A stretch of DNA of 32,989 bases from Bacteroidota bacterium (GTDB lineage: Bacteria > Bacteroidota > Bacteroidia > Chitinophagales > Chitinophagaceae), in assembly GCA_031413675.1 (NCBI GenBank), contig JANOFP010000527.1, positions 1 to 32,989 on the forward strand, read 5' to 3'. A program made the translations under genes and the position numbers. The notes beneath the pieces were generated by a model. It searched no databases and was not told the origin of the DNA. It saw nothing but the letters and a program-made list of their open reading frames with translations. Each line of letters starts with the position of its first letter. Within the stretch, counting starts at the first letter, position 1. Positions 3,851 to 31,352 of the stretch are shown piece by piece.

Positions 3851-3920
3851 CCGGCGGTTGATTAGGATTTGGAGGTCGTTGATTTCTTTGATTGGGATTT
3901 TGTCGGTCTCTTTGTTGAAG
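3851..3920 (-). pseudogene. Orphan copy of the ricT (PSP1) 3' end
   Basis: 3871-3917 matches 5180-5226 at 42/47 bases without gaps. In the ricT frame it reads LQQRDRQNPNQRNQRPPNPNQPPGGN. It has no start codon and is out of frame with the adjacent ATPase stop. Confidence 0.6.
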
Positions 3921-3921
3921 T

Positions 3922-5049
3922 TTATTGCAACCACCTCATTAAAAATTTATCATAAACTGCATAGTAAGGTTCTGCAATGCCACCGTTGTAATACACCATT
4001 TCTTTTGCCAATAATGCCTCCAGGCCTCTCTTTACTAATGAAGAGTTTCCTAAATGGTTTTTACTTATAAATTCATTAGAATGGGGTTTTATTAATTTCT
4101 CTTCTTTTGCAATTGCTGTAAGCAATACCCATTGTGCATGTGTAAGCAGGTTCCTGTATTGGTAAAATATATCCTCTTTTTGTTTCAATAGTTCACTACT
4201 AACTTTAATCGTTTCTTCAATACCAATATTTTTTATGCCACTTGCAAAAATGCAATTACATAACTCTTGTACATAAAAGGTATGTGTATGGGTGAAATTT
4301 AATATATACTCAATAGCCTCAACGCTAATTTTTCGTTTATACGTTGAAAAATTATTTTTAATAAATTGCCCGTATTCTGTATTATTTATAAACCCAATTG
4401 ACAAGTTATTACAACTGGCATAGAATGGCCTTTTTGCACTGTTGAACATTTCCGTCATTATACGATGGTTGCTGCCACAAAAAATAAACCGGCAATTTTT
4501 TAACTGCTGCATATAAGTCCTCAACAATGCTTCTGTATTTTTTTCCGGGTAAGTGGTTATTTGCTGAAATTCATCAATAGCAATAACAACAGCGATGTTT
4601 TGCTTATCTAAAAAATTAAATAATTGCTGTATGGTTCTTTCAGATTCACGGTGCTGCCCCAAATCTAATGTTACCTCCGGGTTACCTGTCATTGCATCAT
4701 AACTTATTACCGGCCTCAATAGCTTAAGTACAGACAAAAATTTCTGCCCTATCCCTTTCTTCTCAGGAAACCGGTTATAGATTGCGGTAGCCAGGTTGTT
4801 TGTAAACTCCTTAAGGTTAACGGTAGAAAAAATATCTAAATAGATGCAAGCAATTTTTTTTGACCCTGATAGTTGATGAAATACATGGTGTACCAATCCC
4901 GTTTTACCCAATCTGCGTAATGCAAAAAGGGTAATGTTATTTTCATTTTTAATCAGCGAAAGTAAACGCCGGGTTTCTTCTTTTCTATCGCAAAAGTAAA
5001 CTGGACTGTGGTAGCCCGACGTAATAAATGGGTTGGCTGGGCGGTTCAT
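3922..5049 (-). CDS. ATP-binding protein, AAA/STAND-like (archaeal-ATPase PF01637 / DUF234-type architecture)
   Basis: It has a Walker A-like RRLGKTGL, a Walker B VVIAIDEFQQI, a sensor-like FCGSNH and a C-terminal winged-helix-like region. The family assignment is from memory, not searched. Confidence 0.85.
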   Translation of the reverse strand: MNRPANPFITSGYHSPVYFCDRKEETRRLLSLIKNENNITLFALRRLGKTGLVHHVFHQLSGSKKIACIYLDIFSTVNLKEFTNNLATAIYNRFPEKKGIGQKFLSVLKLLRPVISYDAMTGNPEVTLDLGQHRESERTIQQLFNFLDKQNIAVVIAIDEFQQITTYPEKNTEALLRTYMQQLKNCRFIFCGSNHRIMTEMFNSAKRPFYASCNNLSIGFINNTEYGQFIKNNFSTYKRKISVEAIEYILNFTHTHTFYVQELCNCIFASGIKNIGIEETIKVSSELLKQKEDIFYQYRNLLTHAQWVLLTAIAKEEKLIKPHSNEFISKNHLGNSSLVKRGLEALLAKEMVYYNGGIAEPYYAVYDKFLMRWLQ

Positions 5050-5109: not shown

Positions 5110-6462
5110 TTACGCATTTCCCTCATTTGTATTGCCTGCCTGCCGGTCAGGCGGACCCGGACGTTGCTGGTTCGAATTCGGTGGTCGCTGATTTCTTTGA
5201 TTGGGGTTTTGCCTGTCTCTTTGTTGGTTGGGGTTTTGTCCGCCTCTTTGCTGATTCGGATTATTGCGTGGTGGTCCTTGTGGTCCCTGTGATCTTTGTC
5301 CACCGGATCCTGCGGATTGATTTCCCTGTTGTCTTTGCTGCTGACGTGGTTGCTGCTGTTGCTTTCGTTTACGGTCAGCTCTTTCTAATTGCTGCAAACT
5401 TATCTGTCCTACTACATCCACAAACTCGGGTTCTACTTCTTTGGGTTTAGTACTTGTTATTTCCACTGCTTCCAGTTCGTCGGGTATTACACCCTGTACA
5501 TTCAGCGTTTTTATTTTCTGCACCCGTTCAATCGTAAGTGGATAATGCTTGGTGCTGTCCGGCATAGTGTACCACATCAGGTTTTTAAAAATATCTTTTT
5601 TAATCAGAAAGGCATTGCCTTTTGTAATTTTCAATACATCGCAGTCTTCGGGGAAATGTTGCAATGCATCCAGATAAGTATCGAGTTCATAATTCAAACA
5701 ACATTTTAATCTTCCGCACTGTCCGCTAAGCTTTGTTTGATTGATTGATAAATTCTGATAACGGGCCGCTGTTGTATTTACACTTTTAAATTCGGTGAGC
5801 CATGTACTACAACACAATTCACGACCACAACTTCCGATGCCCCCGACTTTAGCACTCTCCTGCCTTGCTCCAATCTGACGCATTTCCACTTTTACTTTAA
5901 ACTCACCGGCATATACTTTTATCAATTCACGAAAATCCACACGGCCTTCGGCTATATAAAAAAAGGTTGCCTTACGTCCGTCGGCTTGCATCTCCACTTC
6001 ACTTATTTTCATGTTTAGTTTCAGCTGCTTTGCAATTGCACGGCTACGTATCACGGCTTCTTTCTCTCTTGCTTTATTACTGCGCCAGGTATCTACATCT
6101 CTGTCATTTGAGCGGCGAAGAATTTTTTTCATCTCTTTGTCATCTTCTTTTACACCATGCCTTTTCATTTGTAACCGAACAATCTCACCTGTCAAAGAAA
6201 TTTCACCCAAATCAAAACCACTTACACCTTCTACCGAAACCATATCGCCTTTTTCGTATTCATGCAATGTAGTATTTCTAAAAAAATCTTTGCGGCTACC
6301 GTTATTAAAACTTATCTCCACCACTTTACATTCATCACCAGCGTCGGCAACAGGAAGGTTGCGCAGCCAGTCATGCGTATTCATGCGGTTGCATCCGCCA
6401 GAACTACATCCGCCGTTGCTTTTACATCCACCTGGTTTTGTACCACAACTACCGCAAGCCAT
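5110..6462 (-). CDS. ricT: PSP1 domain protein (YaaT/RicT family) with a Cys-rich N-terminus and a Q/N/R/P-rich C-terminal tail
   Basis: The N-terminus is CGSCGTKPGGCKSNGGCSSGGC. PSP1-type Cys motifs CGRELCC and CGRLKCCLNYE are present. It lies downstream of holB, as in many bacteria. Confidence 0.9.
   Translation of the reverse strand: MACGSCGTKPGGCKSNGGCSSGGCNRMNTHDWLRNLPVADAGDECKVVEISFNNGSRKDFFRNTTLHEYEKGDMVSVEGVSGFDLGEISLTGEIVRLQMKRHGVKEDDKEMKKILRRSNDRDVDTWRSNKAREKEAVIRSRAIAKQLKLNMKISEVEMQADGRKATFFYIAEGRVDFRELIKVYAGEFKVKVEMRQIGARQESAKVGGIGSCGRELCCSTWLTEFKSVNTTAARYQNLSINQTKLSGQCGRLKCCLNYELDTYLDALQHFPEDCDVLKITKGNAFLIKKDIFKNLMWYTMPDSTKHYPLTIERVQKIKTLNVQGVIPDELEAVEITSTKPKEVEPEFVDVVGQISLQQLERADRKRKQQQQPRQQQRQQGNQSAGSGGQRSQGPQGPPRNNPNQQRGGQNPNQQRDRQNPNQRNQRPPNSNQQRPGPPDRQAGNTNEGNA
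5135..5155. repeat. 21-nt GC hairpin element, copy inside the ricT CDS (encodes PDRQAG)
   Basis: CCTGCCTG-CCGGT-CAGGCGGA matches the radA copy at 19/21 positions. Confidence 0.75.
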
Positions 6463-6548
6463 TCGTTATTTAATATTTATTAATTGAAAATTTTAAATTG
6501 AAAAGAACCCTGATATTTTTCAACCAGTTTTCGCTTACAATTTTTTTT

Positions 6549-6792
6549 GAGGGGGAGCCAGCGCAGTTACTACTATCATCGCCTGTTGTCTTCGAATCTT
6601 CCGGTGGAAGATTATCTCACTTGTTGCGTTCAGAAAAGGACTGAACAATTTTGAGACTCTTGTATTTTGCTGAATAGACTTGATTCAGTACAAGAGTGCG
6701 ACGCAACGGAAGCTTAATATATAGACGAACGATGACTCAATAATTACAACCTGAACTATGTGGAAACACCATCTAGTGCAGGCCTCCAACTC
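6549..6792. ncRNA. Candidate structured RNA or non-coding element of unknown class between holB and ricT
   Basis: The block is ~45% GC (hand count) inside an otherwise AT-rich spacer and contains no ORF. A closing helix pairs 6549-6559 with 6781-6792. Nested hairpins lie at 6595-6613, 6628-6646, 6656-6697 and 6756-6776. No known RNA family was recognised. Confidence 0.3.
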
Positions 6793-6801
6793 ACATCTCA
6801 C

Positions 6802-6825
6802 AACCTGTCTGCCGACAGGCAGGTT
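6802..6825. repeat. GC hairpin element, intergenic copy 16 nt downstream of the holB stop, flanked by CAACTCA/CATCTCA and CCACTCA heptamers
   Basis: AACCTGTCTG-CCGA-CAGGCAGGTT forms 10 bp, with one T:G position. Confidence 0.7.
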
Positions 6826-6840
6826 CACCACTCACATCCC

Positions 6841-8070
6841 TCAATCTGCCAAAAGTACTATTTTGTTTTTAATGATATGATATAGTTTAATGGTAAGGGC
6901 ATGGAAGAGCATTTTGGCGTTGGCATTGCGTTCTATATAATAAACCGCCCTGTCAAGCTCCTCTACTATAGCCTGTTGCTGGCTGATGTCGGCTATTTTA
7001 TTAATTCGGTTTGCAAAATCATTTTCAGAGCTGTCAGTGGCTTCAATACCTATGGGGCTGGTGATGCGCAAATGAATACTTTGTTCTAACAGGTGATTAA
7101 AATAGCGGAGAAACTGTTTTTGTTTTTCCCTGCCAAGCCTGCTTATCTCTTCCACCCATTTAGTTTGAGCAGCTGGCCCCGTTTTTAAAATTGCATTCAG
7201 CCAGTCCCGTAATAAACTTTGCCAATCTTCATCGGCATGTTGTAATTGCTGTAAAGCATCCCGGTAATTTCCATCGCTTGTTGCCGCTACCTGCCTTGCT
7301 TTATTCGCATCGGTATTGTTTCTGTTTATCAGTGCATCTGCTATATCCTTTGTTTCAAGCAATGGAATTTTCACCAATTGACATCTCGATACGATTGTTG
7401 GTAGAATTAAGGATTCATTTTCTGCAACCAAGATAAATAAAGTATTGGGTGGCGGCTCTTCAATAATCTTCAACAATTTGTTTCCTTCTTTTTCCAGGTA
7501 CTCGGGCATCCAGAGAATTAATATTTTATAGGGGCTTTCAAAACTTTTCAGACTTAGTTTCTTAATAATGTCATTGCATTCAAGTGCCGTTATATTTCCT
7601 TGCTTGTTTTCTGCTCCTATAAACTGAAGCCAGTCATATATATTTCCATAAGGGTAGCCTTTTATAAATTCTCGCCACTCGGTTATATAATCTGTACTGA
7701 TAGGTGGTTTGCCCGATTTGTTTGTTACAACAGGATAGGAAAAATGAATATCAGGATGAACGAGTTCATTTGCTTTTTTACAACCGGAGCAAATGCCGCA
7801 GGAATCTGAAGGTGAGTGGTGAGTGGTGAGTGATGAGTGTGAAGGCTCATCTCCAAACAAAGAAGGTTCTGAGTGCTGATTGCCGACTGCTGACTGTTTG
7901 TCGCCAGTTTTTTCGCAAACAACATACTGGGCAAATGCAAGAGCAAGCTGTAATGCACCACTTCCTTCTTTACCTAAAAACAATAATGCATGAGCCAGCC
8001 TGTTTGTTTGCATCATATCAGCTAATTGATGCTTTACGTTTTGTTGTGCTATGATAGAAGAAAATTGCAT
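6841..8070 (-). CDS. holB: DNA polymerase III subunit delta' (clamp-loader AAA+), carrying a 28-aa repeat-derived insert
   Basis: The N-terminus has AHALLFLGKEGSG. A zinc-module CGICSGC is followed by HPDIHF, and the SRC motif TIVSRCQ is present. The gene is adjacent to ricT. Confidence 0.85.
   Translation of the reverse strand: MQFSSIIAQQNVKHQLADMMQTNRLAHALLFLGKEGSGALQLALAFAQYVVCEKTGDKQSAVGNQHSEPSLFGDEPSHSSLTTHHSPSDSCGICSGCKKANELVHPDIHFSYPVVTNKSGKPPISTDYITEWREFIKGYPYGNIYDWLQFIGAENKQGNITALECNDIIKKLSLKSFESPYKILILWMPEYLEKEGNKLLKIIEEPPPNTLFILVAENESLILPTIVSRCQLVKIPLLETKDIADALINRNNTDANKARQVAATSDGNYRDALQQLQHADEDWQSLLRDWLNAILKTGPAAQTKWVEEISRLGREKQKQFLRYFNHLLEQSIHLRITSPIGIEATDSSENDFANRINKIADISQQQAIVEELDRAVYYIERNANAKMLFHALTIKLYHIIKNKIVLLAD
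7813..7896 (-). repeat. Two-part heptamer-array module in frame in holB (4 x CAGTCAG-type, a 28-nt spacer, 4 x CCACTCA-type)
   Basis: On the plus strand the units are TGAGTGG x2, TGAGTGA and TGAGTGT (7813-7840), and CTGAGTG, CTGATTG, CCGACTG and CTGACTG (7869-7896). The 84 nt equal 12 x 7 and correspond to codons 59-86 exactly. Confidence 0.8.
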
Positions 8071-12314: not shown

Positions 12315-12444
12315 AAAAATAAAGTTAGCAATTACACTTTCTTAATGATGCAATTAATTTAAAAGATGAAAAATAAATTGATTGAAAAAAATAAACAGGA
12401 GCAACAGTAGAAAGAAACTTAACAGAGAATACCTTTAGCATATT

Positions 12445-12477
12445 ACAAGATAAAAGGGCCAATCTTTCGATTAACCC
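12445..12477 (-). terminator. Orphan terminator-like hairpin upstream of radA
   Basis: On the minus strand it reads GGGUUAAUC-GAAA-GAUUGGCCC (9 bp including 2 G-U pairs) followed by UUUUAUCUUGU. On the plus strand the same positions are C-A mismatches. Confidence 0.4.
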
Positions 12478-12800
12478 TCTTACTTACTAACCCATTAAAT
12501 TCTGGCACTAAGTTACAATTCTGATCCACACTACAAAATAAATTTTTATGTCTGTGAATAACTTTTCATTAGTAACATTAACGTAATATAGTTACCTCGT
12601 ACTATAAAGAAAAAAATTTTAGATGGATGATAAACAGCTACTTGGCTATATTAATCTGCCCCATAATTTAAGGTAAGCCAGACTTCTTATTATATCAGCC
12701 AAATAATGAATCAGATGACAAAAAGGCTGTATTTTTCAGTTTAAACCTGATTGGTAAAAGATTTGCAATCAGCTATCTCTAACAAAAATTAATTAAAAAA

Positions 12801-19704: not shown

Positions 19705-19890
19705 TTAATAACTCAAGATGGCTTCATCTCCTGAAACCGGTAGTCAGAAATGCTGTATGTGATTGCATGGTTAGAACCTGATATAAGTGTGCAGCAAATT
19801 GGTGGGAGCAAACTAATACAGCAAACAACCGGTCTTTTAAAATTGCCGGAAATAAAAATCTCCGGAAATTTTATTCAGAAAAAGAAATGA

Positions 19891-19986
19891 TTATTTATTT
19901 CTTTTCTTGTGTCTGTTCTTTCTCAATCTTTTTTTACGCTTATGCGTCGCAATTTTATGACGCTTTCTTTTCTTACCACAAGGCAT
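19891..19986 (-). CDS. 31-aa highly basic protein, bS22-like (AURKAIP1/COX24-domain family)
   Basis: It is not in the ORF track. The sequence from ATG to TAA is MPCGKKRKRHKIATHKRKKRLRKNRHKKRNK, with 18 of 31 residues K or R. It closely resembles the ~30-aa Bacteroidota proteins of this family, recalled from memory. Confidence 0.65.
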   Translation of the reverse strand: MPCGKKRKRHKIATHKRKKRLRKNRHKKRNK

Positions 19987-20054
19987 ACTAATACTTTTTT
20001 TTAAAAATTAATAAATTAAATAAGGTTCAATTATTTCAACATGCCGCTGCACAT

Positions 20055-25155: not shown

Positions 25156-25247
25156 ATTAGCTAACCAGTTTTCTTCAATCTATTTAGTTACGGTTCTTTA
25201 CTACAGAATTAAATTTTCTTAAACCTACATTTGCAAAAAGTAATAAC

Positions 25248-25844
25248 GTGATTGTAATCGACAATGTGATAATCAGCGATGATTTAGTTGAAAAACAATT
25301 TGTTTGTGATCTTGCCAAATGCAAAGGCGGTTGCTGCGAAGATGGTGATGCGGGTGCGCCTTTGGAAAAAGCTGAACTCGAAATTCTTAATGAAGTTTTT
25401 GAAAAAGTAAAACCCTATCTCACCGAAGCTTCTTTAAAAGAAATAGAAAGTAAAGGTAAATATGTATATAACACCGAATTTGGTTTTGTAACCCCTACAC
25501 TTGGCAATGATTCTGAAATTTGTGTTTATGGTATCAGAGAAAAAAATGGAATCATTAAATGTGCATTTGAACAAGCCTATTATGATGGTATTATTGAATG
25601 GAAAAAACCCATTAGCTGTCATTTGTATCCGGTCATAACTAAAAAAGGGAAGCATGGTGGTTATGAAAGAATGAATTATGAACCAAGAGAAAAATTATGC
25701 AGCCCTGCATGTGCGTTGGGTGAAAAATTAAAAATTCCTGCTTACGAATTTCTAAAAGAATCCATCATACGGAAATTTGGAGAAGATTTTTACAATGCGT
25801 TAGATAAAGCAGCAAAAGAGCATTTTTTGAAAGAAAAAAAATGA
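25248..25844 (+). CDS. DUF3109 family protein
   Basis: The start is GTG. The N-terminus contains FVCDLAKCKGGCCEDGD, typical of this family (from memory). Confidence 0.8.
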   Translation: MIVIDNVIISDDLVEKQFVCDLAKCKGGCCEDGDAGAPLEKAELEILNEVFEKVKPYLTEASLKEIESKGKYVYNTEFGFVTPTLGNDSEICVYGIREKNGIIKCAFEQAYYDGIIEWKKPISCHLYPVITKKGKHGGYERMNYEPREKLCSPACALGEKLKIPAYEFLKESIIRKFGEDFYNALDKAAKEHFLKEKK

Positions 25845-25890
25845 TAGCATACAAAAAAGTAAAACCCACCCGCAACAATATTCACTAACA

Positions 25891-27859: not shown

Positions 27860-27872
27860 TTATCTTCACTTT

Positions 27873-29174
27873 GTGATTGTTTACACCAAAAAAATTACAC
27901 CACGACTACAATACATTACTGATTTTCTTGGTAAGGAAATCTGCGGAAAAGCTTTTGAGCTAACAGATGATAAAGCATATTTTGAAAATCATACTGATCC
28001 GAAAATTAATTACAGCCGGGAAGCAATTTCAAAATGTAAATTTCAAATTTCAGATTGTGGATTACTGTCCGAAACTGAAATTACAAGTCAAACAATATCG
28101 TGTTTTAATGTAAAAGACTTTAAAGCCTTCTTCAAAACAGATGGTGATTATCCATTTGATATTTTTGCTGCCTCTTTTTATTTACTCAGCCGGTACGAAG
28201 AATACTTACCACATAAAAAAGATATGTATGGTAGATATGCTCATGAAAACTCAATTGCATTTAAAGAAGGATTTTTGAATCTTCCATTGGTTAATGTCTG
28301 GATTGATGATTTTAAAAAAGTATTGAAGGAAAAATATCCAACAGTCAATATTCAACAATCCAAATTCAAGTTTGAACCGACCTATGATATTGATGAAGCT
28401 TTCTCATATCAGCATAAAAGATTTTTAAGAACCGCAGGAGGTTTTGTAAAATCTTTGCTGACTGGTAAATGGTCATTGTTAAAAGAAAGAATGAATGTGT
28501 TGAAGAAAAAATCAAAAGATCCTTTTGATTCTTTTGACTGGATGAATGAGTTGCATTCAAAACATAACCTTGAGCCGAAATATTTTTTTCTTGTTTCTGA
28601 GAAAAACGGGAAATACGATAAAAATATTCTTCCTTCTAGTCTGGCTATGCAGCAGTTGATACAACAACATGCAGAAAAATATCCGATCGGCATACACCCA
28701 TCCTGGCAGAGCGGCGATGCTGATGCAATCCTGAAAAAAGAAAAAGAATTATTAGAGAATATTTCGGGCAAAAAAATTTCATCTTCCCGTCAGCATTATA
28801 TCCGTTTTAATTTACCAATTGGCTACCGCAGATTGATTGATGCAGGCATCACCGATGATTATTCCATGGGCTATGGAAGTATTAATGGTTTCCGTGCTTC
28901 GGTTGCTTCTTCGTTTTACTGGTATGATTTGGAAAAAGAAGAAACAACAAATCTGCTGCTGCATCCTTTCTGTTATATGGAAGCAAATTCTTTTTTTGAA
29001 CAAAAATTTACTCCCGAACAGGCTTTTGATGAAATGATGCATTATTACAAAGTCGTAAAATCTGTAAACGGAACTTTGATTACGCTTTGGCATAATACTT
29101 TTTTGGGTGCAGATAAATTTTATAAAGGTTGGCTGGATGCTTATGAAAAGTTTATTCTGAATTGTAAACCTTAG
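27873..29174 (+). CDS. Polysaccharide deacetylase-like (CE4-fold) protein
   Basis: I moved the start to GTG 27873, giving (M)IVYTKKITPRLQYI, which matches the family's N-terminus. It has TYDID and IGIHPS motifs. The listed ATG at 27768 would overlap lutB by 92 nt. Confidence 0.6.
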   Translation: MIVYTKKITPRLQYITDFLGKEICGKAFELTDDKAYFENHTDPKINYSREAISKCKFQISDCGLLSETEITSQTISCFNVKDFKAFFKTDGDYPFDIFAASFYLLSRYEEYLPHKKDMYGRYAHENSIAFKEGFLNLPLVNVWIDDFKKVLKEKYPTVNIQQSKFKFEPTYDIDEAFSYQHKRFLRTAGGFVKSLLTGKWSLLKERMNVLKKKSKDPFDSFDWMNELHSKHNLEPKYFFLVSEKNGKYDKNILPSSLAMQQLIQQHAEKYPIGIHPSWQSGDADAILKKEKELLENISGKKISSSRQHYIRFNLPIGYRRLIDAGITDDYSMGYGSINGFRASVASSFYWYDLEKEETTNLLLHPFCYMEANSFFEQKFTPEQAFDEMMHYYKVVKSVNGTLITLWHNTFLGADKFYKGWLDAYEKFILNCKP

Positions 29175-29486
29175 GTTTTCACGTAGCGATCGCAAAATAG
29201 AAGCAATTCAGCCGGGCACATAAAAAAACCGGCAAAAAACTTACCGGCTGGTGATTTTAATTATTGTGGACCTGAAAAGGGAGCATTGCACAGGTTTGGA
29301 TTCTTTCAAGGGTAATTCAAAAATAATTCCGGACATAAAAACGGGACATTTCAATACAATAATAGATGGCATAAACCGCTGAAGGTTGTGTTGACAAAAA
29401 TTTTTTAACAAATTCATTTCTGTTACCTTGCGCCACTGTTTTTAAAAAGCATTTGATGATTGATTAACTTTGAAAAAAAATTGATA

Positions 29487-31352
29487 GTGCAGGATAAAAT
29501 TCTTTTATTGCCCGATAATATAGCCAACCAAATAGCTGCCGGTGAAGTAATTCAACGGCCAGCAAGTGCTGTAAAAGAATTATTGGAAAATGCGGTAGAT
29601 GCGGGAGCTACTGAAATAAAATTGATTGTGGCTGATGCAGGAAAAGCGTTGATTCAGGTGATAGATAATGGCGGAGGCATGAGTGAAACCGATGCAAGAA
29701 TGTGTTTTGAACGTCACGCCACATCGAAGATTGAAACCATTGAAGATTTATTTCATATTAAAACAATGGGCTTTCGGGGAGAAGCATTGGCTTCTATTGC
29801 AGCCGTAGCGCAGGTAGAATTGAAAACAAAAAGAGCAGATGATGAAACCGGAACTTATATTGAAATTGAAAACAGTTTTGTAAAAAAACAAGAACCTATT
29901 GCAGCACCTACCGGCACCAGCATTGCCATGAAGAATTTATTTTTTAATGTGCCTGCCCGTCGAAATTTTTTGAAAAGTAATGCTGCCGAGATGCGGCATA
30001 TCGTAGATGAGTTTATACGGGTGGCACTTGCATTTCCAGAACTTTTTTTTTCGCTTACGGCAAACAATCAGCAACTGATGCATTTAGATGCCGGTAGTAT
30101 GAAGCAACGCATAATTCAGGTGCTGGGAAATAATTACAATGCAAAACTGGTAGCTGTAAAAGAAGAGACGGACTATATGAATATTTCAGGCTTCGTTGGT
30201 AAACCTGAAACAGCAAAGAAGACAAGAGGTGATCAGTATTTTTTTGTAAACAACCGGTTTATTAAAAGTGCTTATCTCAATCATGCCGTAATGAGTGCAT
30301 ACCAGGAAATGATTGCAAAAGATAGTTTTCCGATGTATTGTTTGTTTATTGATCTTGACCCGGCAGTAGTGGATGTAAATGTGCATCCGACAAAACAGGA
30401 AATAAAATTTGAAGATGAAAAAATTATTTATGCGTTTGTTCAGGCTGCAGTAAAGCATGCATTGGCACAGTTCAGCATTTCTCCTACATTGGATTTTTCA
30501 TTGAATGCCGATATACAACAATTGCCTTCCGTACAGCAACCATTTACAAAAGAAAAAGAATCATCAGCAGCCTCAACTTCCTTGTTTAAAGAATTTACAC
30601 AAAAAAACCAGGCACATTTTATAGAGAAAAATGAATTGAAGCATTGGAAAGATTTGTATGAAAGCAATCAGCAATCAGGAGTCAGTGGCCAGCAGTCAGC
30701 AATCAGCAGCCAGGGAAATGATCAACGTTCAATTGAAGAAAATCCTTCTGGATTTAAGAGTCTGCTTGCCACTCACGACTCACCACTCACCACTCACAAC
30801 ACTCAACTACATAATCAATTTATTATTGCACCTACTCCGTCTGGTTTCATTCTCATCGATCAGCAGGCGGCACATGAAAGAATTATTTATGAACGATTGC
30901 TGAATGCCTCAAAAGATAAACCCGTAACAACACAGCGAAGCATTTTTCCAATAACGATTGAATTAACTCCTGCTGATGCCGTTCTTATTGATGAGTTGAA
31001 AACCGAATTGCAATTACTTGGATTTTTGATTGAACCTTTTGGGAAAAATACTTTTGTAGTACAGGGTACACCTGCCGATGTACCGCAGGGAAATGAAAAA
31101 CAGGCAATCGATTCTTTATTGGAACAGTTCAAGCATTTCAGCAGCGACATAAAATTTTCGAAACGAGAAAAGCTGATTCGTTCACTTGCATGGCATCAAT
31201 CTATAAAGGCAGGCACTTCATTAACAGAAAAAGAAATGAAAGGTTTGATCGATGATTTGTTTCAATGTGCTACTCCCAATGCAACTCCCGGTGGCAGTCC
31301 TACTTATTTAGAGTTTAAGAAAGATCAGTTGGAGAAAATGTTTGGCAAGTAA
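29487..31352 (+). CDS. mutL: DNA mismatch repair protein MutL, with a repeat-derived linker insert
   Basis: It has the GHKL N-terminus LLPDNIANQIAAGEVIQRPASAVKELLENAVDAGA, DNGGGM and a C-terminal dimerisation domain. The start is uncertain: GTG 29487 places LLP at residues 7-9 as in other MutL proteins, and the alternatives are TTG 29460 and TTG 29481. Confidence 0.9.
   Translation: MQDKILLLPDNIANQIAAGEVIQRPASAVKELLENAVDAGATEIKLIVADAGKALIQVIDNGGGMSETDARMCFERHATSKIETIEDLFHIKTMGFRGEALASIAAVAQVELKTKRADDETGTYIEIENSFVKKQEPIAAPTGTSIAMKNLFFNVPARRNFLKSNAAEMRHIVDEFIRVALAFPELFFSLTANNQQLMHLDAGSMKQRIIQVLGNNYNAKLVAVKEETDYMNISGFVGKPETAKKTRGDQYFFVNNRFIKSAYLNHAVMSAYQEMIAKDSFPMYCLFIDLDPAVVDVNVHPTKQEIKFEDEKIIYAFVQAAVKHALAQFSISPTLDFSLNADIQQLPSVQQPFTKEKESSAASTSLFKEFTQKNQAHFIEKNELKHWKDLYESNQQSGVSGQQSAISSQGNDQRSIEENPSGFKSLLATHDSPLTTHNTQLHNQFIIAPTPSGFILIDQQAAHERIIYERLLNASKDKPVTTQRSIFPITIELTPADAVLIDELKTELQLLGFLIEPFGKNTFVVQGTPADVPQGNEKQAIDSLLEQFKHFSSDIKFSKREKLIRSLAWHQSIKAGTSLTEKEMKGLIDDLFQCATPNATPGGSPTYLEFKKDQLEKMFGK
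30662..30717 (+). repeat. Eight tandem heptamers (AAGCAAT CAGCAAT CAGGAGT CAGTGGC CAGCAGT CAGCAAT CAGCAGC CAGGGAA) in the mutL linker
   Basis: The 7-nt periodicity is seen directly. The array encodes QQSGVSGQQSAISSQG. Confidence 0.8.
30769..30810 (+). repeat. Tandem heptamers CCACTCA CGACTCA CCACTCA CCACTCA (then degenerate CAACACT CAACTAC) in the mutL linker
   Basis: Seen directly. It encodes THDSPLTTHNTQL and uses the same unit as the holB array and the holB 3' flank. Confidence 0.8.

Follow-up and report, generated by a model that had tools for sequence, protein, structure and literature searches.

The window, i.e., the whole stretch of 32,989 nucleotides analysed here, carries on its minus strand the neighbouring genes holB, which codes for the delta′ subunit of DNA polymerase III, and ricT, which codes for a PSP1-domain protein, separated by a spacer of 378 nt (6463-6840). 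The closest relatives of this holB are found in metagenome-assembled genomes (MAGs) of Bacteroidota/Chitinophagaceae, and the source genome is Chitinophagaceae-like. An earlier note, drawn from the sequence alone, had read the spacer as a structured RNA, with a MITE-like insertion (MITE, for miniature inverted-repeat transposable element) as an alternative. This report focuses on the block at the centre of that reading, which we consider with high confidence to be a doublet, arranged head to head, of a small DNA repeat with a dispersed distribution.

The doublet consists of two units of opposite orientation (Table 1). The unit facing the 3′ end of holB is intact and comprises a head (TTTTGCTGAATAG), a 20-nt core (GTACAAGAGTGCGACGCAAC) and a tail (GGAAGCTTAATATATAGACGAACGATGACTCAATAATTAC). 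It is the sole match in the window to an nhmmer profile of 120 copies (53 bits, E 2.8e-14), is conserved at 97% in L001 and 88% in L002, and contains the 12-mer GTGCGACGCAAC, which occurs once in the window vs. 0.02 expected. The unit facing ricT is degenerate and belongs to a “variant” subfamily, as judged by direct reading and by comparison with variant copies (GTACAAGTGAGTGACACAAC followed by AGGCGATG) in L015/L045 and among solo copies. In its own orientation, it is composed of a head remnant (CTGAACGCA), the core’s first half (ACAAGTGAG), an insert of 25 nt, the core’s second half (GACAAC) and a tail (AGGCGATGATAGTAGTAACTGCGCTGGCTCCCCCTCAAAAAAAA) ending at 6541. The insert is a hairpin with arms AATCTTCC and GGAAGATT located at the exact centre of the core, and nhmmer missed this second unit because the insertion splits the core. 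The ricT-facing copy has decayed following the insertion of the hairpin, the holB-facing copy remaining intact. By direct reading, the two ends of the doublet (6541-6560 and 6731-6750) are not complementary, and its long-range helices arise because two inverted copies pair with each other, e.g., 6623-6628 with 6702-6707 and, in minimum-free-energy folds, 6576-6581 with 6730-6735. The hairpins other than this core-against-core pairing are limited to the lineage of the window (the window, L001 and L002). The many helices of the spacer are by-products of two inverted copies and of local hairpins, not an RNA architecture.

Table 1. Coordinates of the repeat doublet, of inverted-repeat stems and of the flanking features in the window.
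Feature	Position	Strand	Remarks
Intact unit facing the holB 3′ end	6659-6750	+	head, core, tail
20-nt core of the intact unit	6688-6707	+	possible mini stem-loop TGC[GAC]GCA
Degenerate second unit, variant subfamily, facing ricT	~6541-6640	-	direct reading and comparison with variant copies
25-nt hairpin insert at the centre of the second core	6591-6615		arms 6595-6602/6606-6613
Lineage-specific hairpins in the doublet heads and middle	6628-6646, 6656-6664/6689-6697, 6665-6675/6683-6693		window, L001 and L002 only
Inverted-repeat stem	6595-6602/6606-6613		
Inverted-repeat stem	6623-6629/6701-6707		
Inverted-repeat stem	6628-6633/6641-6646		
Inverted-repeat stem	6656-6664/6689-6697		
Inverted-repeat stem	6665-6675/6683-6693		
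Inverted-repeat stem	6802-6811/6816-6825		one T:G position on the + strand
G+C-rich hairpin, 15 nt past the holB stop	6802-6825	-	without T-run; outside the repeat
A+T-rich stretch next to the ricT start, upstream side	6463-6540	-	19.8% G+C over 6463-6548
holB (DNA polymerase III delta′)	6841-8070	-	Pfam DNA_pol3_delta2, E 2e-38
ricT/PSP1-domain protein	5110-6462	-	Pfam PSP1, E 3e-27

The repeat family was delineated by scanning one genome per species for the exact 16-mer AAGWGTGCGACGCAAC, which is present in at least 120 genome stretches; among the matches listed, all are from Chitinophagaceae/Chitinophagales, a stretch containing several copies and a genome many such stretches. According to the 120 aligned copies that served for the definition of the unit and for the nhmmer profile, the unit is ~90 nt long (60-95 nt) and is made of a weakly conserved head (..TGCTGAATAG..), the core GTACAAG[A/T]GTGCGACGCAAC and a tail (GAAAGCTTAATAG..CTGCAGCCGGG..CAAAAAA) that closes in an A-run. 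The 20-nt core is asymmetric and non-palindromic. Among the 279 copies recovered by the profile in 1.55 Mb of loci, this 20-mer is the dominant haplotype and is near-invariant even in copies that were not picked by exact match. A variant haplotype of the core (GTACAAGTGAGTGACACAAC) accounts for ~10% of the copies, and the canonical and variant cores together with two types of tail distinguish subfamilies. Positions 3 and 7 of the core covary from C:G to T:A (mutual information of 0.375 vs. a null maximum of 0.07), and longer hairpins of unrelated sequence occupy its centre in at least five independent copies (those of the window, L047, L103, L095 and L144), which suggests that the core centre behaves as a small stem-loop. 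Neither the 12-mer nor a description of Chitinophagaceae repeats was found in the relevant literature; as far as was searched, this repeat family of Chitinophagaceae and phages is previously undescribed.

The dispersion of the repeat is also apparent in metagenomes containing the organism of the window, where contig depth rises from ~9 to 87-565 (10- to 60-fold) over 6665-6726 and contigs end there; the same depth jump and contig breaks are found at a locus with dense copies. A depth jump combined with contig ends at the core is the signature of a repeat. Copy density is as low as ~1 per 100 kb in holB loci (652 kb with 6 copies beyond those of the spacer) and as high as ~1 per 1.5-2 kb in certain MAGs, a spread of >50-fold between genomes. 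In the MAG JBBRDW01 (L152:1-8000), and also in L179, L178, and L184, nearly every intergenic region contains a unit (~1 per 1.5 kb), and the orientation of the units in dense arrays alternates strictly through a same-strand gene array including hisF, trpA, and trpB.

Copies are almost exclusively intergenic, 221 of 226 lying outside ORFs (open reading frames) of at least 100 codons and five inside genes, and a unit alone often fills the whole stop-to-ATG interval between co-oriented genes. Both orientations are found in the intervals of tandem genes, with 75 sense and 61 antisense copies in hosts, and 14 and 16, respectively, in phages. The A-run tail abuts the end of a gene, start or stop (median gap of 32-43 nt), and ~130 nt are kept on the head side. 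The neighbouring genes are diverse housekeeping genes such as atpD, guaB, leuA/leuD, trpA/trpB, hisF, clpB, and genes coding for ABC permeases. Approximately 15% of the copies are arranged in head-to-head doublets and ~85% are solo; the possibility that solos are decayed doublets was rejected, a weak upstream partner being present in only 5 of 164. Neighbouring solo copies are far more often in opposite (60) than in the same (12) orientation (p = 8e-9), and this alternation depends on distance, with opposite/same counts of 27/1 for neighbours less than 1.5 kb apart, 19/2 for 1.5-2.5 kb, 11/5 for 2.5-4 kb and 3/4 for more than 4 kb. It persists within same-strand gene arrays (L152) and over strand changes (L179 and L184). 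When L004 is compared with L045, the outer tails are colinear and both cores and the middle are reverse-complemented, which amounts to an inversion between the inverted cores. In assembled Logan contigs, the material inspected for them, no strand-changing joints attributable to inversion were seen, the apparent joints being cross-matches between copies.

At the holB-ricT junction itself, the spacers of 74 relatives were compared with that of the window. Beyond the closest relatives, the spacer is alignable over ~200 nt only (roughly 6554-6749), within which the 32-mer 6688-6719 retains 90-97% identity even where holB identity is just ~70%. Genomes differ in the orientation of the conserved piece with respect to holB and ricT, which speaks against a cis-acting ricT leader. 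A unit can be recognised in 36 of the 75 spacers, that of the window being counted: 24 contain one ricT-facing copy, one contains two ricT-facing copies, seven contain doublets and four, the window among them, contain a holB-facing copy only. The closest relative of the window (L001, 97% holB identity) bears in addition an insertion of ~100 nt, ~308-405 nt past the holB stop and directly after the A-run of the ricT-facing unit, which is absent from the window and from L002.

The 16-mer is also present in 43 viral stretches of IMG/VR, which together contain 58 nhmmer copies. The viral contigs with genes checked are tailed phages; L230, which was scanned for structural genes, codes for a major head-protease, head decoration, tail sheath, tape measure, and tail proteins. 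Units in phages are found between structural genes in both orientations, often alternating, and the myovirus-like contigs L230, L204, L242, L219, L212, and L220 of IMG/VR carry 2-3 units each among their structural genes. The gain or loss of discrete units can be followed at two sites: L242, L212, and L202 have the arrangement TAA-[90-nt unit]-ATG vs. TAAC-ATG in L219, and L238 and L243 contain a ~60-nt unit where L204 has TAAAAATAAATG. The host pair L091/L192 provides a similar, less clean case. A target-site duplication between head and tail was considered and rejected, as head and tail share no mutual information. The phage ORFs scanned code for structural proteins, a PAPS reductase, RecT, and a methyltransferase, the RecT-like annealing protein being encoded by one phage, and no transposase was seen among them. 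A search for the unit in GenBank phage records yielded no match.

Much of what the earlier note had described at the locus was borne out. Pfam confirms the identity of both genes, the spacer has the length that it gave and passes from an AT-rich part to a block of ~45% G+C (45.5% over 6551-6840, for 36.3% over the whole window), and every hairpin that it listed was found in place. The outer helix that it had drawn between 6549-6559 and 6781-6792 is imperfect and is not among the 25 longest inverted repeats. The spacer is indeed devoid of long ORFs, although the longest reach 48 codons instead of the ~40 announced. The statement that most spacers measure 6-90 nt was true for 11 of the 23 spacers of the window delimited by crude ORF calling (≤90 nt), whereas 8 of the 23, that of holB-ricT included, are at least 248 nt long. 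With a median of 279 nt over the 75 spacers, a long holB-ricT spacer is the rule among relatives, and its length in the window is not exceptional. Crude ORF calling delimits further long spacers of 350-735 nt in the window (12315-12800, 19705-20054, 25156-25890, 27860-28223, and 29175-29678), and the core of the repeat was sought in all five and found in none.

On both sides of the doublet, the spacer bears features of its own. The A+T-rich stretch next to ricT presumably corresponds to its 5′ leader or promoter region, a role assigned from position. At the other end, the hairpin 6802-6825, at the position of which the sequence of L002 differs from that of the window, probably belongs to the 3′ end of holB and lies outside the repeat; as for an intrinsic terminator of holB, there is no T-run on the minus strand and a consensus scan makes no call. 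Runs of the heptamer GTGAGTG/CACTCAC are found directly past the holB stop (6826-6840), inside holB (7811-7844), where they code for an H/S/P/T-rich linker, and, as an inverted copy, 23 kb off (30765-30800); CACTCAC-rich stretches of a similar kind follow holB in many relatives. Finally, a 59-nt direct repeat of 85% identity (3859-3917 and 5168-5226) has one copy at the 3′ coding end of ricT and the other just downstream of an AAA-ATPase gene (3922-5049, Pfam ATPase_2). With the ricT 3′ end thus duplicated on both sides of it, the ATPase gene looks like an insertion beside ricT.

The principal claim of the earlier note was that the spacer encodes, from the plus strand, a single closed multi-helix RNA of ~245 nt, to be verified by a search of Rfam, by covariation among related holB-ricT spacers and by a count of copies. 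Folding of the region is moderately better than that of shuffled sequences (z = -2.46 on the plus strand and -3.07 on the minus strand). Rfam 15 at gathering threshold gave no match over the whole window, only chance-level matches at E ≤ 10 over 6350-6950, and none at repeat copies in 16 other loci. The single unit, folded from 120 sequences, yielded no consensus structure (-0.4 kcal/mol) and was without any covarying pair. When eight holB-ricT doublets were folded jointly, nothing was retained but 12 pairs of core against core (-2.64 kcal/mol), one of them compensatory, and these pairs are uninformative on RNA structure because they are near-invariant. The count of copies revealed a sequence dispersed in many genomes. 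The multi-helix RNA interpretation is not supported, and the MITE-like fallback comes closer than this main claim: its direction was right, the sequence being multi-copy, but the terminal repeat on which it was founded (6549-6559/6781-6792) is not the relevant one, and the copies are neither near-identical nor accompanied by target-site duplications.

Other functions that a conserved spacer could fulfil were rejected in turn: a 6S-like or leader RNA, to which the rod-like fold of the doublet might point, given the core at hundreds of unrelated loci and the absence of covariation; a promoter, given that the Bacteroidetes -7 motif TAnnTTTG has no positional enrichment and that a co-oriented gene lies downstream of only about half of the copies; and a small ORF in the unit, the frame of which is broken by indels, as judged by eye. 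In four soil and sediment metatranscriptomes, assorted copies are found within longer contigs that read through into both flanks at a low depth (2-10) and may include DNA.

The combination of multiple copies, intergenic placement, distinct subfamilies, units gained and lost as discrete blocks and a distribution common to hosts and phages points to a small element of the kind of repetitive extragenic palindromic (REP) sequences or MITEs. We therefore favour, as a reading somewhat better than even, that the unit of the doublet is a non-autonomous REP/MITE-like DNA element recognised through its core; for the mechanism, that of a mobile element read through the core at the DNA level, the chances appear to be about equal either way. 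The invariance of the core implies a trans-acting reader, the independence of orientation from transcription suggests that recognition takes place at the DNA level, and the covariation at the core centre, with its tolerance of longer hairpins, supports recognition of a single-stranded stem-loop. A trans-acting factor would then read the core as DNA, probably as a mini stem-loop in single-stranded DNA. Closely spaced direct copies would be lost by deletion, through either short-homology or site-specific recombination, and inverted copies could invert the DNA between them; together, both processes would explain the distance-dependent alternation and the inversion between L004 and L045. Alternation might also originate from local copying in inverted orientation. 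More speculatively, the core could be recognised by a trans-acting system, as yet undescribed, that Chitinophagaceae and their phages have in common. It would then be part either of a new class of small mobile element, inserting at stop/start junctions with neither terminal inverted repeats nor target duplication, or of a set of asymmetric sites for recombination or architecture that spans the chromosome and enforces, by pairwise interactions, alternation around single genes.

Several observations weigh against this interpretation. Outside the core, identity between copies averages 50% within one genome (maximum of 84%) and 47% between genomes; copies of the same genome being as divergent as those of different genomes, there is no sign of recent bursts. 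Neither terminal inverted repeats nor a target-site duplication were found at the two clean filled/empty sites, and the stem of the canonical core is just 3 bp long. No transposase, RAYT (Y1 transposase of REPs) or recombinase recurs beside the copies, be it among 311 neighbouring ORFs or among the ORFs bracketed by inverted pairs. A unit with an intact core has also been kept in 36 of the 75 holB-ricT spacers over many genera, a long retention that simple selfish decay does not predict and that suggests selection or conversion acting on the core. A site beneficial to the host, or conversion that is still going on, accounts for it better than does a relic of a purely selfish kind, which makes a domesticated site a serious rival.

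Such a domesticated DNA site would bind, through the core, a conserved lineage-specific protein (involved in nucleoid organisation, acting as a topological or transcriptional insulator, or serving as a global regulator); selection would keep the sites, and phages would copy them to use the same factor. Core invariance beside flanks that have drifted to ~50% identity, the lasting presence of the unit between holB and ricT, an orientation independent of transcription, and the lack of a transposase among neighbouring ORFs are all in line with domestication. It is harder to reconcile with density differences of >50-fold between genomes, with subfamily haplotypes and with clean gain and loss between related phages; moreover, a non-degenerating asymmetric 20-mer is unusual for a protein site, and the alternation of orientation is not predicted. 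On balance, domestication appears rather unlikely.

If the cores were asymmetric sites of a site-specific recombinase, alternation would be expected, since direct pairs would delete the genes between them, and the holB-ricT doublet would form an invertible switch (inverton). The strength and distance dependence of the alternation, doublets made of inverted pairs of unlike copies, an inter-core segment inverted in L004 vs. L045 between colinear flanks, and the occurrence of both orientation states of the holB-ricT element among relatives are consistent with such a switch. However, no recombinase gene adjoins the window’s doublet, nor does one recur in the vicinity of copies, the cores within doublets are only ~60-110 bp apart, which is short for synapsis, ~85% of the copies are solo, housekeeping genes arranged in tandem between inverted copies are all on one strand (L152), and strand-changing joints are absent from the contigs, the only material inspected for them. 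We consider recombination sites improbable.

Little probability is likewise granted to an RNA-level element, in which co-transcribed sense and antisense copies would form a duplex of at least 20 bp that steers RNA processing or stability, e.g., by RNase III. Units that fill the whole interval of co-oriented genes, neighbours that are mostly inverted and hence complementary in one transcript, metatranscriptome contigs that run through copies into both flanks and a variant/canonical pairing with G-U on one strand would all suit such a duplex. However, alternation goes on over changes of gene strand (L179 and L184), pairwise pairing needs no genome-wide invariant core, as pairs could covary and such covariation is absent, and the depth of the metatranscriptome contigs is low (2-10) and may include DNA. 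As for the ~245-nt structured non-coding RNA or cis-regulatory leader proper to the plus strand of this one locus, the better-than-shuffled folding (z = -2.5 and -3.1), the existence of all the hairpins, two of which have G-U on the plus strand only by direct reading, and a long spacer conserved among relatives do not save it from the lack of an Rfam match, the absence from relatives of helices beyond the core-core one, a conserved part that is a multi-copy repeat at hundreds of unrelated loci and in phages, and an orientation relative to ricT that varies among relatives, so that it is largely refuted and deserves hardly any credence.

The doublet is ordinary as a local feature and moderately interesting as a member of a family. 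In terms of annotation, no candidate RNA gene should be entered for the holB-ricT spacer; in Chitinophagaceae, scans that rely on structure will go on reporting inverted copies of the repeat as “structured,” and assemblies break at it. What sets the family apart is a non-palindromic core that remains invariant over many genera and phages, a >50-fold range of density, an alternation that depends on distance and the gain and loss of units without the hallmarks of known transposition. The repeat could serve as a host-phage linkage marker, as MITEs have, and a new mechanism of mobilisation or recombination could come to light if the factor reading the core is identified.

Among known systems, the REP/REPIN elements (with RAYT) and BIMEs of Proteobacteria are short, extragenic, high-copy sequences long inherited within a lineage, and occur as singlets and as head-to-head dimers, often of unlike partners, with head-to-tail pairs being rare and orientations alternating in clusters (PMC3733652, PMC2817692, PMC3116915). 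They consist of a master sequence and its mutational neighbours, and those of the CGTC type have no dedicated transposase nearby (PMC3733652, PMC2817692); their definition relies on a palindromic stem of 5-13 bp with a GTAG or CGTC tag (PMC3733652, PMC2817692, PMC3116915). Similarly, the Chitinophagaceae repeat is high-copy and extragenic (221/226), forms head-to-head dimers of unlike partners and few head-to-tail pairs, and has a master sequence with mutational neighbours and no dedicated transposase seen nearby. Unlike REPs, it has a core with a mini stem of only 3 bp (TGC[GAC]GCA), a ~90-nt unit with an A-run tail, and mostly solo copies, and it is also found in phages. When the stem and tag of REPs were looked for in the core, CGTC was found on the reverse strand, but no stem of 8-9 bp follows it, longer stems being present only as insertions in few copies; no RAYT was detected among the 311 neighbouring ORFs or the ORFs bracketed by inverted pairs.

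Prokaryotic MITEs, which are small, non-coding, intergenic and multi-copy, are shared by hosts and their viruses, and their definition requires that the terminal inverted repeats measure at least 10-15 bp and that the target-site duplications span 2-10 bp (PMC11602168). The Chitinophagaceae repeat resembles them by its occurrence in host and phage genomes and by its presence/absence polymorphism in phages and in one host pair, and differs from them by the lack of target-site duplication at two clean comparisons and by copies that are not near-identical (84% at most outside the core). Terminal inverted repeats of at least 10 bp were not found in the unit, the head and tail of which are unrelated. 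The Correia/NEMIS elements of Neisseria are also small, non-coding, intergenic, multi-copy elements, often co-transcribed with neighbouring genes. Overall, the repeat has neither the palindrome with a tag that defines REPs nor the terminal inverted repeats, target duplication and near-identical copies that define MITEs.

Elements of the IS200/IS605 type and their non-autonomous derivatives, the palindrome-associated transposable elements (PATEs), have asymmetric ends and generate no terminal inverted repeats or target duplication. Small imperfect hairpins near each end and their flanking bases are recognised in single-stranded DNA, and insertion occurs 3′ of a fixed tetra- or pentanucleotide. 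The Chitinophagaceae repeat shares with them the lack of terminal inverted repeats and of target duplication. In contrast, it has a single central mini hairpin and no fixed target beyond stop/start, A/T-rich junctions, and no TnpA was found. The pdif modules of Acinetobacter plasmids and the sfx sites of shufflons are asymmetric recombination sites that alternate and bracket one to few genes; they depend on XerC/D and Rci, respectively, and are located on plasmids or in one locus. Unlike them, the Chitinophagaceae sites are spread chromosome-wide and in phages, beside housekeeping genes, and no recombinase was seen among their neighbours. Invertons are segments flanked by inverted repeats that occur in both orientations in one population, usually with a recombinase close by; in the repeat doublets, inverted cores are present, and both states are seen between lineages.

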